A DNA stretch of 64,000 nt from a virus. The notes under the pieces are model-generated. The model was not told where the DNA came from, did not search any database, and saw only the letters and a program-made list of their open reading frames with translations. Below are positions 20,603 to 54,942 of this stretch, in pieces (the stretch's first letter is position 1; each line of letters begins with the position of its first letter). Where the stretch lies: positions 20,962 to 84,961 of the IMG/VR virus record IMGVR_UViG_3300017917_000199. One strand, 5' to 3'. The position numbers were made by a program, and so were the translations under genes.

Positions 20603-20963
20603 TCATTGTTTCATCTTCCATCGGCTCATCCGATACAAGCAGTATATCATTAGGATCTACTTTTCGCAACGTGACTTTACCCGAAGGAGTTTCAACAGTG
20701 ATACCGCGTGTCCAACGACCGTGACTAATAAGAATGTACTTACCAATTTCTAGTTGTGGGTCTTTAACATCAGGACCTAGTCCATAAATCTTTGCCCAAC
20801 GTGGACGAATACCAGATGACTTTTTATCATCGTCTAACAGAACAATGCCACCTTTACTGATACGTTCGTCAAACTTCATGTCCGAAACAATAATGTTATC
20901 ATGCATGAAGCGTAGTTTGTCTACTTTTGTAGGACTAAATGCTGGTTTGCTATACTCGCTCAT
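20586..20963 (-). CDS. groES: GroES-like co-chaperonin
   Basis: DNIIV...ISKGGIVL...GLGP...DILLV. Confidence 0.75.
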   Translation of the reverse strand: MSEYSKPAFSPTKVDKLRFMHDNIIVSDMKFDERISKGGIVLLDDDKKSSGIRPRWAKIYGLGPDVKDPQLEIGKYILISHGRWTRGITVETPSGKVTLRKVDPNDILLVSDEPMEDETMSDKVY

Positions 20964-39538: not shown

Positions 39539-39545
39539 TATTTAT
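39539..39545 (-). promoter_or_regulatory. Late promoter core ATAAATA for the sheath operon
   Basis: Recurrent motif. Confidence 0.65.
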
Positions 39546-41808: not shown

Positions 41809-41842
41809 GATTACCCGATAATGTAGTATTTATCAGGTAATC
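41809..41842 (-). promoter_or_regulatory. Hairpin containing the late promoter and occluding the neck-gene initiation region
   Basis: GATTACCTGATAA-atactaca-TTATCGGGTAATC-tctATG; ATAAATA at 41827-41833. Confidence 0.65.
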
Positions 41843-44819: not shown

Positions 44820-44826
44820 ATAAATA
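44820..44826 (+). promoter_or_regulatory. Late promoter core ATAAATA (divergent)
   Basis: Upstream of the gp14-like gene. Confidence 0.6.
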
Positions 44827-47248: not shown

Positions 47249-48625
47249 TTGGCCGCCTTCTTCTATGATAATCAGGTACGCAGATTCTTAATACAGTTTG
47301 CAAAAATTTTTAGTAACTGGTATGTTACTAAGGGTAAAGATCCTAACGGCAACGATATATTAGTTCGCGTACCTGTAATGTATGGAGATTCTAGTAGACA
47401 AGCTAGCACTATTATTGCTAATAACAGTTCCAGTAATTTACCTTCAGCACCGTTGATTACGTTTTACATTAGTGGTTTAGAATATGACCAACGTAGAACA
47501 CAAGATCCTACGTTCGTTGATAGAATAAGTGTTCGACAACGTACATATAATAGTGAAACACAAACATATGAACAAGTTCAAGGTCAAGCATTTACAGTTG
47601 AAAGATTAATGCCTGTTCCCTATACGTTGCGTGTTACTGTAGATTTTTGGACAACAAACTACAATCAAAAATTAGAATTGATTGAACAATTGGGAACATT
47701 GTTTAACCCATCATTAGAAATTCAATCTACTGATAACTTTATTGATTGGACTTCGTTGAGTGTTGTATATCAGGATGGATTAACATTTAGTAGCAGAACC
47801 ATTCCCCAAGGTACAGGTAATCCAATTGACGTAATGAGTTGGAAGTTCTATATGCCTATATGGATTAGTAACGCTGCTAAACTCAAGAAGTTTGGTGTTA
47901 TTGAGAAAATCATTGCAAGTATCTTTAAAGGTAATGCACTAACTGATATTCAAGATGACGATTTATTGTTAGGTACTAGACAGAAAATTACACCTTATGG
48001 ATACAAAGTATTGTTGATAGGAAACAACCTACAATTACTACCAGCGAATGAAACTTTTAACCCTCCTAACACAGATTTGAATCTACCTCCTGCACCAAAC
48101 ACTAGCTTGTATTGGTCTAGTTTGTTGAACGTATACGGCACACTAAGACCCGGTATTAGCCAGATATGGTTACAGAATCCATACATGGATACAGAAATTG
48201 TAGGTACGATTGTTCCGAACCCAGTTGATGATAGATTGTTAATCTATAACATCGACCCTGACACATTACCACAAAATACATTAGCTCCAGTTGATAGCGT
48301 TATCAATCCCTTGATTACAGGTCCAAATGCAGGCTTACCAGGACCTGTCCCAAATAGAAGATATTTGATAGTAGAAAGTGTAGGTCATGATGGAGACACC
48401 ACTACATCATGGGGAGATTTAGTTGCAAACGCTAATGATATTATTCAGTACAATGCTGGGTTAGGTAAATGGGTAGTATCGTTTGATTCTCAGGCTGCAA
48501 CGTCTGTCCAATACGTTACGAACTTAACGACCAACGTCCAATATCGCTATATGAATACTGAAAATATATGGATGAAATCCGTGGAAGGTTGGTACGATCA
48601 GGGCGACTACAGTATTGTAATCTAA
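47249..48625 (+). CDS. Tail completion/sheath stabiliser (gp15-like), extended
   Basis: FFYDNQVRRFLIQF, VPVMYG, PVPYTL, QKLELIEQL..LFNP. Confidence 0.8.
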   Translation: MAAFFYDNQVRRFLIQFAKIFSNWYVTKGKDPNGNDILVRVPVMYGDSSRQASTIIANNSSSNLPSAPLITFYISGLEYDQRRTQDPTFVDRISVRQRTYNSETQTYEQVQGQAFTVERLMPVPYTLRVTVDFWTTNYNQKLELIEQLGTLFNPSLEIQSTDNFIDWTSLSVVYQDGLTFSSRTIPQGTGNPIDVMSWKFYMPIWISNAAKLKKFGVIEKIIASIFKGNALTDIQDDDLLLGTRQKITPYGYKVLLIGNNLQLLPANETFNPPNTDLNLPPAPNTSLYWSSLLNVYGTLRPGISQIWLQNPYMDTEIVGTIVPNPVDDRLLIYNIDPDTLPQNTLAPVDSVINPLITGPNAGLPGPVPNRRYLIVESVGHDGDTTTSWGDLVANANDIIQYNAGLGKWVVSFDSQAATSVQYVTNLTTNVQYRYMNTENIWMKSVEGWYDQGDYSIVI

Positions 48626-48643
48626 CAGATTTCGTGCTATCAT
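48615..48643 (+). promoter_or_regulatory. Sigma70 promoter, leaderless geometry
   Basis: TTGTAA-17-(TG)TATCAT-5 nt-ATG. Confidence 0.6.
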
Positions 48644-48648
48644 TTAGT

Positions 48649-49065
48649 ATGAACAACGTTGCTGCCGGTGTTTTCTTTTACAGTAAGAATACTAACCGTT
48701 TTTTATATCTTCTACGAACGGATACTAAAAATCCGGGCACGTGGGGTATACCCGGTGGAAAGTTAGAAGAAAACGAAACACTGCTTGAAGGTGTTATGCG
48801 TGAATGCACAGAGGAAATAGGTGGCTTTCCTGAAAATACAAAATTAGTTCCTATTCAAAAATTCAAAAATCATAGTTTTGTATACCATACTTTTTTCTGT
48901 GCAGTTGAAGATGAATTTACTCCAAAACTCAATGAAGAACATTGCGGGTATGCTTGGGTAGGAGATCATCAATACCCCAAGCCATTGCATCCTGGATTGT
49001 TTAGCACAGTCAACATTGATGTTGTACAAGAAAAATTACAAGCACTAATGAATAAGGGGACCTAA
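48649..49065 (+). CDS. NUDIX hydrolase
   Basis: WGIPGGKLEENETLLEGVMRECTEEIG Nudix box. Confidence 0.9.
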   Translation: MNNVAAGVFFYSKNTNRFLYLLRTDTKNPGTWGIPGGKLEENETLLEGVMRECTEEIGGFPENTKLVPIQKFKNHSFVYHTFFCAVEDEFTPKLNEEHCGYAWVGDHQYPKPLHPGLFSTVNIDVVQEKLQALMNKGT

Positions 49066-49393: not shown

Positions 49394-50659
49394 TTAAGCG
49401 TTGTTAATAGTTACGATTGGGTTAGGTTGTCCGGATACGTTAGATACTTGACCATCGATTGGGTTTGTACCTGGATACGTATTAGCTGCATAAGCTGTAC
49501 CAAATGTTGCAATGATATCTGGGTTAGCATTTGCATCATTTGTATTATAGAACACTTGTGATTGATAATCATTCAATGACTGGATATATACAGTAGCTGA
49601 ATTTGCATATGTACCAATGATGTTCATTGTGTTAGGTGTTAGTGCAGTATTAGCAACATTAGCTGTATAACATTGTGCTGTTAATCCTGTAGTAGAACCT
49701 GTAGCCAAGTATTTTGTTTTGCCCTTTTGACGAACAATATAGCCTGGCTCATTATCAGCAAATATGTAATTTGCATTAGTAAAAGTTATCGGAGGTTCTG
49801 TATCTAAAACTACTACATCAATTGTAGCATTAGCTGCGGTGGTTCCAGTAGTTAACGCTCTTGTTGGTCCGTATTGTGTATTAGATACCGTAAAGGCTGC
49901 TGCGTTAGCAATAGTTTTAACAAAGTATGTTACACCTGCTACTAGACCACCTGTGTTCGCGTCGAATGTCACTGGCGCACCAACAAACAATGTTTGTGCG
50001 TTGCCAGAAGTACCAATAACATTTCCTGTAGCACTTGTGTTAGCAACAGCAACTGTAATATAACCTGTAACAGTATCAACAAATCCAACATCAACATAAT
50101 CTGTGCTGCCATTGATATTAGCTACAGCTACTTGTAGTGCTGAGCCAACTGATAACGTATTAGAGAAGTCAGTACCCTGACCGTAAACATTTAAGTTACC
50201 AGGATCACCGTACATTGTACCTACACCCACTTGACCAATAGCAACTTGACATAGTGTTTGTGAACCATAAAATGCTGTATTGCCACCAACTACACCGTAG
50301 CTTGTGCTGTTTGTTGCTGTGTTAGAACCATCAGGGTTACTAAATCCACTGTCAACTAATCCAACGGTAGCTGCTACTGTTGTACTTGTTGTAGTAGAAA
50401 GATTTACTGGGGTAAATGTTGGGTTAGCGTTTAATGGAGTAGCTGAAACAGTAAATGTGCTTGCTCCGGTTATTTTTAATATCCAATATGTTGTTCCACC
50501 TGTTAATCCACCTGTAGTTGTTGCTGGTACAACTGACATACCTGCAATAATACCTAATGTTGATAATGTCTGTGATACGGTTACTTCTTCTGTTGTTCCA
50601 TTAGTACCTGTGATTGTTAAGACTGCCTGAGCCTTAGATATTTTTAGAGGGCGTCCCAT
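49394..50659 (-). CDS. Virion structural protein (paralog A)
   Basis: MGRPLKISK and IVRQKGKTKYL; Thr/Asn-rich. Confidence 0.6.
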   Translation of the reverse strand: MGRPLKISKAQAVLTITGTNGTTEEVTVSQTLSTLGIIAGMSVVPATTTGGLTGGTTYWILKITGASTFTVSATPLNANPTFTPVNLSTTTSTTVAATVGLVDSGFSNPDGSNTATNSTSYGVVGGNTAFYGSQTLCQVAIGQVGVGTMYGDPGNLNVYGQGTDFSNTLSVGSALQVAVANINGSTDYVDVGFVDTVTGYITVAVANTSATGNVIGTSGNAQTLFVGAPVTFDANTGGLVAGVTYFVKTIANAAAFTVSNTQYGPTRALTTGTTAANATIDVVVLDTEPPITFTNANYIFADNEPGYIVRQKGKTKYLATGSTTGLTAQCYTANVANTALTPNTMNIIGTYANSATVYIQSLNDYQSQVFYNTNDANANPDIIATFGTAYAANTYPGTNPIDGQVSNVSGQPNPIVTINNA

Positions 50660-50679
50660 TTGTTTCTCCTTATTGATAT

Positions 50680-50734
50680 GTGGGTTCTATTCCACTACGC
50701 GGCGGGGACCGCATAAACTCCCATCATTAGGAGC
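50680..50734 (-). ncRNA. Candidate structured 5'-leader RNA, copy 1
   Basis: Three hairpins; covaries with 52413-52466; lies between the late promoter (50743-50749) and the SD. Confidence 0.65.
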
Positions 50735-50748
50735 ATATGATATATTTA

Positions 50749-51429
50749 TCAACGAAGGTCAAAAAGCAGTATCTCAGAGTTATCAGGATTTGTTATTTCT
50801 ACTATGTTTTCGTTTTCAATAGCAAAACCACCTAACGTAGGGCTTTCTATACCGTTAATAGTAGCAGTTCCTGATATAATATACATATAATATCTGCGAT
50901 TACTATTCAAATGTAACGTATGATTCTTTGTAAAGATGCCTGCAAACACTTTAGCATCACTATTGATGTATATAGGACCATTCTCGCTAGCAATAGGACA
51001 GAACTTGTCTAGTTTATCTTCTCTAGTGAACTGCATCACATCATATTGAGGAGCAAAGTTATGTTTGTTAGGACGTAACCATATCTGTAGATAACGAATA
51101 GGCTTATCTGATAGATTGCCTTCAGTGTGCCATATGCCAGTTCCACTGCTCATGCGCTGTACACACCCACTAGGTACTTCCCCGTAGTTGTGTAAATTGT
51201 CATTGTGATAGCAAGGACCATCGATAATGTATCCTAAAATTTCCATATCACAATGTTGATGAATGGGCACACAGTTTCTGGGCTGAACTCTATCATCGTT
51301 GATAACTTCTAAATCGCTGAAATGGATATAGTTAGGGTCATAGTAACTATTGTTACTAAAAGTACGATATGTTTCAATCCAGTCTTCTTTGAGATGGCCT
51401 AATGTATCAGGATGTCTAAATTTAATCAT
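50749..51429 (-). CDS. Pirin family protein (YhhW-like)
   Basis: FSDLEVINDDRV, HQHCDMEI, QRMSSGTGIWHTE, LQIW. Confidence 0.9.
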   Translation of the reverse strand: MIKFRHPDTLGHLKEDWIETYRTFSNNSYYDPNYIHFSDLEVINDDRVQPRNCVPIHQHCDMEILGYIIDGPCYHNDNLHNYGEVPSGCVQRMSSGTGIWHTEGNLSDKPIRYLQIWLRPNKHNFAPQYDVMQFTREDKLDKFCPIASENGPIYINSDAKVFAGIFTKNHTLHLNSNRRYYMYIISGTATINGIESPTLGGFAIENENIVEITNPDNSEILLFDLR

Positions 51430-51443
51430 GCAGATATTTAATG

Positions 51444-51467
51444 GAAAAGCGGCATAAGCCGCTTTTT
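51444..51467. terminator. Rho-independent terminator
   Basis: AAAAGCGGC-ATAA-GCCGCTTTTT. Confidence 0.8.
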
Positions 51468-51497
51468 CTTTTGAGTGTTATTTGATTTAACTCAATA

Positions 51498-52391
51498 TTA
51501 ACACCAGTTCTCTGTGCCAGCTAGAGTATAAACTAAATCATTTGTAGCTGCTGGGTCAGGGATAGTATTACCACCGTCGTTAAAGAATGTAGCTGAGTAT
51601 GTTACACCTTCATTGCAATTGTCATATGGTGTTTCAAAGTTTGTACTGAATTTGTTCTTCAAGCGACTTGCATAGTATGTGTCACCATCATCATAAATTG
51701 CAACACTCATTGTGTTAGGCTCTGTCGGGCTGTTTAAGTTTACTAACAAACATGTAGCAACTGGCCATACATAACCGTTTGTTGTAAGACCTGTACCGTC
51801 TTTAGTTGCTGTAAAGATATCATATTGTCCAGCAGTTGCGTCAGCACCTAATGCTACCCAATCAGTATCACCAACGTCAGCAATCATGTATGCTTGACCA
51901 GCAGCAATGGATTCATCTTGAATGTTATTATTAGTACTAGCAACTAAGAATTTTCTAGAACCTTTTTGACGTACAATAGATGCATTGCTTGTAGCAGTGT
52001 AATACCATGCGCTGTCAGTAACATCTACAGCAGAAGGGTCACCTAATTCTACTTCACCGTCATCTGTTATGCTATCGATAATACCAAGTGAAGTATATCC
52101 GCCTGCACCATCATCTACCCAAATCTGTGAGCTACCGGTGTTAATTCCGTCTGTAGTAAAGTGAGTTCCTGTTCCAGTAACAGTAGTGCTGCTAGTAGTA
52201 GCAGTAATAGTTCCCAAACCTTTTACTAATACCGCTGCATCACAACGGATCATATCGCTATCTTCGTAGATACCGCCTACGATACCGGGTTGATTATCAT
52301 CATAACCATTGTTTGTACTACCATCGTTAGGGAAACCCTGATCTACAACTTGGCCCCCTTGATATTTTCTAATCTTTAATGCATTTCCCAT
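51498..52391 (-). CDS. Virion structural protein (paralog B)
   Basis: MGNALKIRK and IVRQKGSRKFL, shared with paralog A. Confidence 0.6.
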   Translation of the reverse strand: MGNALKIRKYQGGQVVDQGFPNDGSTNNGYDDNQPGIVGGIYEDSDMIRCDAAVLVKGLGTITATTSSTTVTGTGTHFTTDGINTGSSQIWVDDGAGGYTSLGIIDSITDDGEVELGDPSAVDVTDSAWYYTATSNASIVRQKGSRKFLVASTNNNIQDESIAAGQAYMIADVGDTDWVALGADATAGQYDIFTATKDGTGLTTNGYVWPVATCLLVNLNSPTEPNTMSVAIYDDGDTYYASRLKNKFSTNFETPYDNCNEGVTYSATFFNDGGNTIPDPAATNDLVYTLAGTENWC

Positions 52392-52412
52392 TTGTTTTTC
52401 CTTTAAATGTTT

Positions 52413-52466
52413 GCGGGTTCTAGCCGCTACGCAGTGGGTTACTGCATAAATTCTCCCTATGAGAAT
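52413..52466 (-). ncRNA. Candidate structured 5'-leader RNA, copy 2
   Basis: Same architecture as copy 1 with compensatory changes; late promoter at 52476-52482. Confidence 0.65.
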
Positions 52467-52492
52467 GTTATAAAGTATTTATCTATATTCGC

Positions 52493-54888: not shown

Positions 54889-54942
54889 AAATGTAATTCT
54901 TCACGATATTACATTTATTTATCTAAAATGTGCCCTAATACA

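Follow-up and report, generated by a model that had tools for sequence, protein, structure and literature searches.

Two probable freshwater-2 (RF02980) RNA leaders of late genes in an uncultured giant T4-like phage

The leaders of E. coli rpsO (S15) and T4 gene 32 are autogenous translational operators with a start-site pseudoknot, and the ompA leader is a 5′-terminal stabiliser hairpin of an abundant mRNA. Freshwater-2 (Rfam RF02980, Rfam type Cis-reg) reportedly stems from a 224-motif comparative screen by Weinberg et al. in 2017, in the supplement of which the motif is said to be described. It presumably originates from aquatic, mainly freshwater, metagenomes, and we know of no cultured carrier. 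In the full text of 8.4 million papers and preprints, no description of a function for freshwater-2 was found, nor any mention of 'RF02980', 'freshwater-2 RNA/motif' or 'freshwater-1 RNA/motif', and the matches to the bare term 'freshwater-2' were unrelated water-quality texts only. The word 'freshwater' is absent from the main text of that 2017 paper (PMC5737381), the supplement of which may treat gene context.

Freshwater-2 and the two window elements

The window analysed here is the whole 64,000-nucleotide stretch of viral DNA (positions 20,962 to 84,961 of IMG/VR record IMGVR_UViG_3300017917_000199), and it contains two three-hairpin elements on its minus strand. The original prediction had taken these as candidates for a new, unrecognised motif, and had named a match to a known family in a cmscan search of Rfam as the outcome that would remove the novelty. 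Such a match was returned when the covariance-model scan was run, with 69.9 bits for copy 2 (52389-52466, minus strand) and 57.5 bits for copy 1 (50657-50733, minus strand) against a gathering score of 49.9. The novelty claim falls because both copies match RF02980 above this score and over its full length, aligning untruncated to model positions 1-84 of 84; the motif is already catalogued in Rfam and there is no new motif here. The three hairpins P1, P2 and P3, as well as AAGGAG and AUG, are all present in the printed alignments of the window copies. Model and copies share the three hairpins, the conserved UUAUGC...GCGUA and UAGAAC, and the SD and AUG that close the 3′ end, with zero structural difference between them. 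The Rfam threshold was also passed by 19 of 20 sampled related loci. These scores establish membership, and the reading as a whole, with two freshwater-2 copies that each lead a late phage mRNA at its 5′ end, is probable at roughly 85%. Their parts are as follows.

52389..52466, minus strand: freshwater-2 RNA copy 2 (RF02980, 69.9 bits; MFE fold of three hairpins)
52466-52450, minus strand: copy 2 P1, AUUCUC/GAGAAU
52448-52428, minus strand: copy 2 P2, UAUGCAG(U)/(A)CUGCGUA, loop AACCC
52427-52413, minus strand: copy 2 P3, GCGG/CCGC, loop CUAGAAC
52403-52399, minus strand: copy 2 SD-like AAGGA
52391-52389, minus strand: copy 2 ATG
50657..50733, minus strand: freshwater-2 RNA copy 1 (RF02980, 57.5 bits; MFE fold of three hairpins)
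50734-50717, minus strand: copy 1 P1, GCUCCU/GGGAGU
50715-50696, minus strand: copy 1 P2, UAUGCGG(U)/(G)CCGCGUA, loop CCCC
50695-50680, minus strand: copy 1 P3, GUGG/CCAC, loop AAUAGAAC
50671-50666, minus strand: copy 1 SD AAGGAG
50659-50657, minus strand: copy 1 ATG

All six hairpins read exactly as first written, and the compensatory changes reported between the copies, from G-C to A-U (P2) and from U-A to C-G (P3), were both correct. The folding z-scores of the single sequences were modest (-1.75 and -2.00), and the stretch from P3 to the AUG, including the SD and the spacer, was unpaired in both window copies. The core pattern occurred twice in the window and in 0 of 100 shuffles. The leaders of the two copies are identical at 57 of 92 aligned bases, rising to 28 of 36 in the P2-P3 core, and the sole BLASTP match between the two downstream proteins was local (8 of 11 at IVRQKG, E 0.01), so the earlier statement that the RNA is better conserved than the protein holds. 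A conserved upstream ORF starting from the AUG within UUAUGC was considered and rejected, as it spans 14 codons in copy 1 and meets a stop after 2 codons in copy 2.

Late-promoter-like boxes and the MGRP protein family

Each copy lies upstream of a gene and downstream of a promoter-like box, with the following features at the locus.

52476..52482, minus strand: ATAAATA late-promoter-like box of copy 2 (T4-type -10 core; predicted transcript start a few bases before P1)
51498..52391, minus strand: 297-aa gene (MGNALKI...), diverged MGRP-family member (family profile A1, E 7.9e-5)
51443..51468, no strand assigned: GC-rich terminator-like hairpin flanked by T/A runs and following the 297-aa gene (consensus scan, pattern match only)
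50749..51429, minus strand: Pirin-like cupin gene between the paralogues (Pfam PF02678, 1.5e-20; PF17954, 2.9e-14)
50743..50749, minus strand: ATAAATA late-promoter-like box of copy 1 (sequence position; ORF-start association in the window)
49394..50659, minus strand: 421-aa gene (MGRPLKI...), MGRP-family member (family profile A1, E 1.5e-11)

The described placement between ATAAATA and the SD was borne out at both copies, with boxes at 50743-50749 and 52476-52482 and strong SDs downstream. Across the window, 19 of the 24 ATAAATA sites were found 0-120 nt before the start of a same-strand ORF, compared to 7.9% of random positions, and each copy is preceded by a putative promoter of the T4 late type, that is, a TATAAATA-like box close before the gene without a -35 element. 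Among the relatives, 120 of 124 instances had a TAAATA no further than 80 nt upstream, as opposed to 4.1% of random 80-nt windows. Transcription likely starts a few bases after ATAAATA, in which case the motif would form the extreme 5′ terminus of the transcript. Both leaders measure 83-84 nt and exceed every other late leader in the window (5-66 nt). The Pirin-like cupin gene lies between the paralogues with its stop codon overlapping the promoter-like box of copy 1, and this arrangement recurs in one related locus (L012). The terminator-like hairpin at 51443..51468 was listed on the plus strand, and the minus strand reads GCGGC-UUAU-GCCGC-UUUU.

The leader is coupled near one-to-one with a single unannotated protein family, MGRP. 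An ATGG was found 18-34 nt after the P3 loop in 124/124 instances, the products started with MGRP in 120 of these, and the 107 complete products formed a single BLAST cluster. In the reverse test, which leaves out 9 start-pattern instances with less than 100 nt upstream, the leader was present at 109 of the 111 starts found with a start-only pattern. With an E cut-off of 0.001, the family counts 1,560 representatives.

The two downstream genes had been described as virion genes, which is plausible on indirect evidence: the late-promoter box, the presence of Gp23 next door in relatives, and fusions to lectin- or Ig-type domains. The proteins themselves have no Pfam, PHROG or PDB match. The Gp23 capsid gene precedes the MGRP-family gene in 35 of 78 upstream neighbours, counting only ORFs of at least 120 aa within 600 nt. 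The neighbour searches excluded one family-member sequence per list (L083), and one of them also a 2,545-aa ORF (L103). PA14/GLEYA, Laminin_G, Big_2 or fn3 domains were detected in 7 of 10 long family members tested; in such long members the lectin- or Ig-type domains are C-terminal, and their presence would fit a virion surface protein. Neither the 297-aa nor the 421-aa protein had a Pfam or PHROG match, a PHROG search of 51 short family members gave zero matches, and a PDB profile search gave nothing below E 0.75. In the ESM Atlas, unnamed viral clusters scored 0.86-0.87 and a head-fibre cluster 0.84, which is below the tool's own lead level. The 297-aa protein has 153 homologues, all unnamed or annotated as 'hypothetical protein', and the 421-aa protein gave no tblastn match in GenBank phages. 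A search for Gp23 in the window's own 85-kb record returned no match, which says little because the control genomes likewise gave none.

All viral carriers found were IMG/VR contigs. In prokaryote assemblies, 6 real copies were identified among 37 pattern matches, all on MAG contigs, and the 50,697 GenBank phage records gave no match by blastn or tblastn. The genome hosting the window is that of an uncultured giant T4-like phage. Judged by the gp15-like protein, the cultured phages closest in kinship are Atu_ph07, Phosso and PA5oct, which show 32-35% identity.

Covariation and pairing among the relatives

The 124 instances yielded a MAFFT alignment of 116 distinct leaders (set A2) after 8 instances, duplicates or those with less than 24 nt upstream, were left out, and a further set of 88 distinct leaders (A5) was collected with search patterns that leave P1 and P2 unfixed. 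Identical leaders were counted once, and the viral counts exclude the window's own record (L001, L002, L216-L219) and the prokaryote assemblies (L123-L159). In A2, P3 was paired in 97.4% of cases and all 4 of its 4 pairs had changed on both sides, while in A5 pairing reached 80.5% in P1, 99.5% in P2 and 98.1% in P3, with double changes at 6/6, 3/7 and 4/4 pairs, respectively; these percentages lean towards structure because the search patterns hold the most conserved bases constant and because A5 was itself fitted to the model. One P2 pair in A2 occurred as GC in 64 leaders, AU in 32, UA in 19 and GU in 1, and the covariation score of A2 was reached by 0 of 500 shuffles. The three-hairpin structure of freshwater-2 is thus well supported by about 200 relatives from viral contigs, and the claim of a covarying structured RNA was confirmed for all three hairpins.

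P1 differs from the other two hairpins in that its sequence varies freely among the relatives while the pairing is kept. Where TAAATA and UUAUGC are 22 nt or more apart, 93/93 leaders had a hairpin of -3 kcal/mol or better, with a mean of -6.9 compared to -2.5 kcal/mol for shuffled sequences. Of the 16 leaders in which this spacing is 16 nt or less, 14 gave no P1 hairpin. The suggested alternative pairing of GGG in P1 with CCC in the P2 loop is possible in both window copies; as a family-wide feature it was rejected, given the free sequence of P1 and the short-spaced leaders that have no P1 hairpin. An extra anti-SD element was seen in 31 of 112 relatives. In 45% of 106 leaders the 5′ end was complementary to the P3 loop over 4 nt or more, compared to 20% when shuffled. 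A long-range pairing between these two regions was also rejected: no more than 32 of 197 leaders contain GUUC, and in 13 of those 32 the flanking position is compatible, which equals chance level.

From the leader sequences we infer that CCCR of the P2 loop can pair with UGGG at the start codon and that this pairing potential is conserved among the relatives. The P2 loop could form a helix of 4 bp or more with the start region in 99 of 113 leaders, compared to 52% with shuffled loops, and the remaining 14 loops formed fewer than 4 bp. The CCCR/UGGG cells were paired in 89.7% (A2) and 89.0% (A5) of cases. A double change at the loop/start pairs occurred once among the 116 leaders of A2, and this near absence of covariation is accounted for by the Met-Gly codons, which fix the 3′ side of the putative pseudoknot. 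Two genes encode Ala at position 2; in one (ATGGCA, L074) the loop is the matching GCCA, and in the other (L020) the loop is UACGUCCA, with no clean compensation. Synonymous variation is present in the Gly, Arg and Pro codons of the MGRP start, which indicates that MGRP is selected as protein, and the conserved UGGG therefore need not mean RNA pairing. The pseudoknot helix would consist of four pairs only.

Possible working of the leader

A cis-regulatory role, as originally proposed, remains the most likely reading of the element. At the 5′ end, the variable P1 hairpin may, at about even odds, serve mainly as a shield. Tentatively, this could be joined by a step in which a partner acting in trans, for which a protein is a likelier candidate than a small ligand, recognises the invariant P2 stem and the UAGAAC loop of P3, and CCCR, at the 3′ side of the P2 loop, engages UGGG (the start and Gly codons) in an H-type pseudoknot stacked on P2, thereby tuning translation initiation. 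The SD and A-rich spacer are unpaired in the window copies, so the default state is probably 'on'. In a more specific form, the leader would be an autogenous operator: an MGRP-family protein, by way of an N-terminus that is invariant and basic, or else some other late phage protein would attach to the P2 stem and the P3 loop, lock CCCR:UGGG over the start codon and so match synthesis of the capsid-surface protein to capsid assembly. We judge this form unlikely. The rpsO and gene 32 operators resemble freshwater-2 in their compact leader fold and, should the putative pseudoknot form, in a loop pairing with the initiation region, and freshwater-2 likewise strictly couples one leader to one protein family. 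This likeness concerns the possible working only, since freshwater-2 has no sequence or structural homology to these operators and no such Rfam match, and protein binding is putative.

The same observations may be read with no regulatory partner at all, the 5′ hairpin stack passively guarding a very abundant late mRNA from 5′-end-dependent decay while displaying an open, A-rich ribosome-binding site. P1 begins a few bases from the predicted 5′ end, its pairing is kept with free sequence much as in ompA-type stabilisers, all 93 leaders with sufficient spacing retain a hairpin (mean -6.9 vs -2.5 when shuffled), the SD and spacer are open in both window copies, and the leaders are unusually long for the window (83-84 nt). 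A stabiliser of this kind would, however, have no need for a near-invariant P2 stem, an invariant UAGAAC and a conserved CCCR across proteins that are only about 20% identical, nor is conserved primary sequence of the P2/P3 type needed in the ompA case, and P1, the best-placed 5′ guard, is missing from 14 of 16 short-spaced leaders. We therefore regard purely passive stabilisation or enhancement of translation as somewhat unlikely. A riboswitch, with the P2-P3 core as a small-molecule sensor that switches translation, had been suggested as well, and it would suit the conserved primary sequence in a compact structured leader, the anti-SD element of the 31 relatives that could serve as an expression platform, and the possible start-codon pseudoknot, which by analogy recalls the logic of small pseudoknot riboswitches. 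Yet the motif heads a single structural-type protein family and never a metabolic or transport gene, and the controlled genes hint at no ligand; moreover, the conserved bases are located in a regular stem and a hairpin loop rather than in a junction or internal loop, and the window copies have no alternative structure hiding the SD, which together make a riboswitch highly improbable. Finally, the constant neighbourhood of a promoter-like box is the one observation that would fit a free-standing small RNA or a DNA-level signal, such as a promoter-proximal or packaging element, and it is nothing specific. Compensatory changes that keep pairing at 13 of 21 pairs argue for a folded single strand, and the tight distance to the start codon (18-34 nt), the extension of the Rfam model itself across the SD and AUG, and the absence of a terminator between P3 and the gene render anything other than an mRNA leader scarcely credible.

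With the motif catalogued in Rfam ever since the 2017 screen, the remaining value of the two copies lies in the annotation of an orphan RNA family, to which they add T4-type late-promoter boxes, the MGRP protein family, giant T4-like phages as carriers and a possible start-codon pseudoknot as context. On this evidence, freshwater-2 is probably a 5′-terminal element of late mRNAs in giant T4-like phages. If the autogenous operator were true, it would give this orphan family a function and constitute a new phage translational operator, heading a family of structural genes with over 1,500 sequence clusters.

Identity of the leaders and their setting

The following features are referred to in the text (window coordinates):
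50657-50733, minus strand: leader copy 1
52389-52466, minus strand: leader copy 2
50749-51429, minus strand: pirin-like cupin gene (PF02678, PF17954), flanked by the two late paralogues
48568-49065, plus strand: NUDIX hydrolase gene, converging on the MGRP operon and adjoining the gp15-like gene

The hairpins described in the original prediction are all present where it placed them, and the optimal thermodynamic fold of each copy consists of three hairpins in series (z-scores, relative to dinucleotide shuffles, of -1.75 and -2.00). A pattern for the core is found at two places in the window and is absent from all 100 shuffles. The accompanying claim that the RNA was new fails, as the Rfam scan of the whole window, set beforehand as the refuting check, gave two matches above the gathering score, both to the cis-regulatory family RF02980 'freshwater-2' (69.9 and 57.5 bits compared to a gathering score of 49.9, covering model positions 1-84 of 84). 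Both leaders are thus members of a known family. The Rfam model itself extends through the Shine-Dalgarno sequence (SD) and AUG, and across the full 85-kb record the same two copies were found, with no third. A literature full-text search found no descriptive text on freshwater-2, nor is the family named in the main text of its source paper (PMC5737381).

Judged by its genes, the carrier is an uncultured giant T4-like myovirus, since the window encodes a T4 gp15-type tail sheath stabiliser (PF16724), a tail sheath C-terminal domain, a DnaB-like helicase and a Toprim domain, and the gp15-like protein has its nearest counterparts in the jumbo phages Atu_ph07, Phosso and PA5oct (32-35% identity). 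The parent IMG/VR record comprises 84,961 bp, of which the window covers bases 20962-84961, with a CheckV completeness of 24%. On the minus strand, a 701-aa tail-fibre-like gene and a 91-aa ORF are followed by an ATAAATA box, leader copy 2, a 297-aa gene (MGNALKI start) and a terminator-like hairpin, and then by the pirin-like gene, leader copy 1, its 421-aa gene (MGRPLKI start) and a 104-aa coiled-coil ORF. The pirin-like gene ends in a TGA stop codon that overlaps the ATAAATA box preceding copy 1. The pirin-like gene is an odd, metabolic-type gene within a structural module, and its placement between the paralogues recurs in another collected locus, L012. In PA5oct-like phages, gp15 adjoins a MutT/NUDIX gene.

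T4-type late promoters are built on a TATAAATA core, without a -35 element. ATAAATA is not enriched across the window (24 sites, 27 expected; examples are 39539-39545, 41827-41833, 44820-44826 and 54916-54922). In 19 of these 24 cases a same-strand ORF starts 0-120 nt downstream of the box, compared to 7.9% of random positions. These boxes are probably used as T4-type late promoters. Several are located merely 5-7 nt before an ATG and would yield near-leaderless late messages; the longest leaders behind such sites are the two freshwater-2 leaders, at 83-84 nt.

Relatives and the MGRP protein family

IMG/VR was searched with three patterns, each giving at least 120 matches, and the family is larger than the set collected. 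Among the matches listed for the first pattern (P2 stem plus P3 loop) there were 124 instances, the window's two included. TAAATA preceded UUAUGC by 12-51 nt in 120 of these, three of the 124 having less than 60 nt of upstream sequence; the motif is present in 4.1% of random 80-nt windows from the same loci. An ATGG followed the P3 loop after 18-34 nt in all 124, and the products among these matches began with MGRP in 120 cases, MGNA in two (window copy 2 and L012) and MAR in two. The 107 complete products among them (116-512 aa) formed a single BLAST cluster. When 20 loci were sampled, the Rfam model passed 19 and missed L056, a leader without P1.

Among the matches listed for the reverse scan, whose pattern covered the start region only, 111 had 100 nt or more of upstream sequence, and TAGAAC was located 14-40 nt before the ATG in 104 of them. 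Five more (L221, L222, L223, L225 and L236) have a leader with UAAAAC or UGAAAC in the P3 loop, so the loop G is not strictly invariant. Two lack the leader: L231 looks like a chance match, and only L220 clearly breaks the coupling among these matches. At position 161, L220 has a 385-aa MGRP-start ORF with a normal SD and no freshwater-2 leader upstream.

In prokaryote assemblies, the first pattern was found in 37 places. In six of these, all on MAG contigs, the leader is complete and the gene starts with MGR; the remaining 31 show neither feature and served as a chance control. The six (L138, L140, L141, L150, L153 and L154) were binned as Rhizobium, Crocinitomicaceae, Vampirovibrionales, Legionellales, Rickettsiales and Haliscomenobacter; they are probably phage contigs within the bins, which are therefore not reliable as host clues. 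One viral contig, L006, carries a glutamine riboswitch aptamer (RF01739, 58 bits) and a manA RNA (RF01745, 57.9 bits) at 2328-2861 on the minus strand, both within 1 kb of its freshwater-2 copy.

A protein profile built from 51 short family members matched only two ORFs in the record, those in the window (E-values of 1.5e-11 and 7.9e-5), and the two genes, originally described as paralogous, are thus distant paralogues. No Pfam, PHROG or PDB relative of the family was found, while 1,560 representatives were obtained at E-values up to 0.001 from a library of 1.84 billion proteins. Most longer members carry the conserved domain, of about 125 aa, at their N-terminus. Among ten long members scanned, five carried PA14/GLEYA, one Laminin_G_3 plus Big_2 and one fn3 (fusions in P0267, P0163, P0145, P0200, P0215, P0217 and P0144), and three nothing recognisable. 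For loci among the matches listed, the 78 distinct nearest upstream neighbours include 35 genes for a Gp23 major capsid protein, and the 90 nearest downstream neighbours include 17 for a NUDIX hydrolase. The combination of an anchor domain, variable lectin- or Ig-type display domains, a capsid-gene neighbour and a late promoter would fit a putative capsid-surface (decoration) protein.

Structure and covariation

Covariation was assessed in 116 distinct leaders aligned with MAFFT (A2) and in 88 distinct leaders from loci found with patterns fixing neither P1 nor P2 (A5); the latter were fitted to our structure model, so that their figures lean towards the structure.

Pairing in the leader alignments (alignment, hairpin: cells paired; pairs changed on both sides)
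A2, P1: 45% (misaligned by MAFFT); 6 of 6
A2, P3: 97.4%; 4 of 4
A5, P1: 80.5%; 6 of 6
A5, P2: 99.5%; 3 of 7
A5, P3: 98.1%; 4 of 4

The variable P2 pair in A2 was GC in 64 leaders, AU in 32, UA in 19 and GU in one, the other P2 pairs there being fixed by the search pattern. P2 variants found without fixing this stem stay paired (C-G to G-C, G-C to A-U and U-G to C-G). When the 3' partners in A5 were shifted by 1-3 columns, pairing fell to 32-45%; the covariation score of A5 was not reached in any of 500 shuffles. Wherever at least 22 nt separate TAAATA from UUAUGC (93 leaders), P1 folds to -3 kcal/mol or lower (mean -6.9, compared to -2.5 kcal/mol when shuffled). At spacings of 12-16 nt, 14 of 16 leaders have no P1 hairpin and two a weak one. 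This short-spacing variant, which includes L008, L017 and L056, is under-counted by the Rfam model, as L056 falls below the gathering score.

Possible start-codon pairing and candidate mechanism

At its 3' end, right beside the 3' strand of P2, the P2 loop reads CCCR, which is complementary to the UGGG of AUG-GGN. A loop-start helix of at least 4 bp can form in 99 of 113 distinct leaders compared to 52% with shuffled loops, and CCCR:UGGG cells are paired in 89.7% (A2) and 89.0% (A5); this evidence is thin, since coding fixes the 3' side, and synonymous changes at the Gly, Arg and Pro codons show that selection acts on MGRP as protein. CCAU loops move the pairing register onto AUGG. Of two genes with Ala as second codon (ATGGCA), L074 has a compensating GCCA loop, and L020 is not cleanly compensating. 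The SD and its A-rich spacer are unpaired in both window copies. An additional element between P3 and the SD, GGRCYNYU, is found in 31 of 112 leaders (such as L003, L009 and L024) and is absent from both window copies; by complementarity it can pair with AGGAG as an anti-SD hairpin.

The main rival explanation, that the leader is a purely passive stabiliser or enhancer of its message, is considered rather unlikely, and a riboswitch for a small ligand very improbable. Based on the loop-start pairing and the unpaired SD and spacer of the window copies, our tentative preference, at a probability of roughly 40%, is a leader that would act in cis on the late mRNA: a partner would recognise the invariant P2 and P3 sequence, and the start-codon pseudoknot would be the switchable element by which translation initiation of the MGRP-family gene may be tuned.
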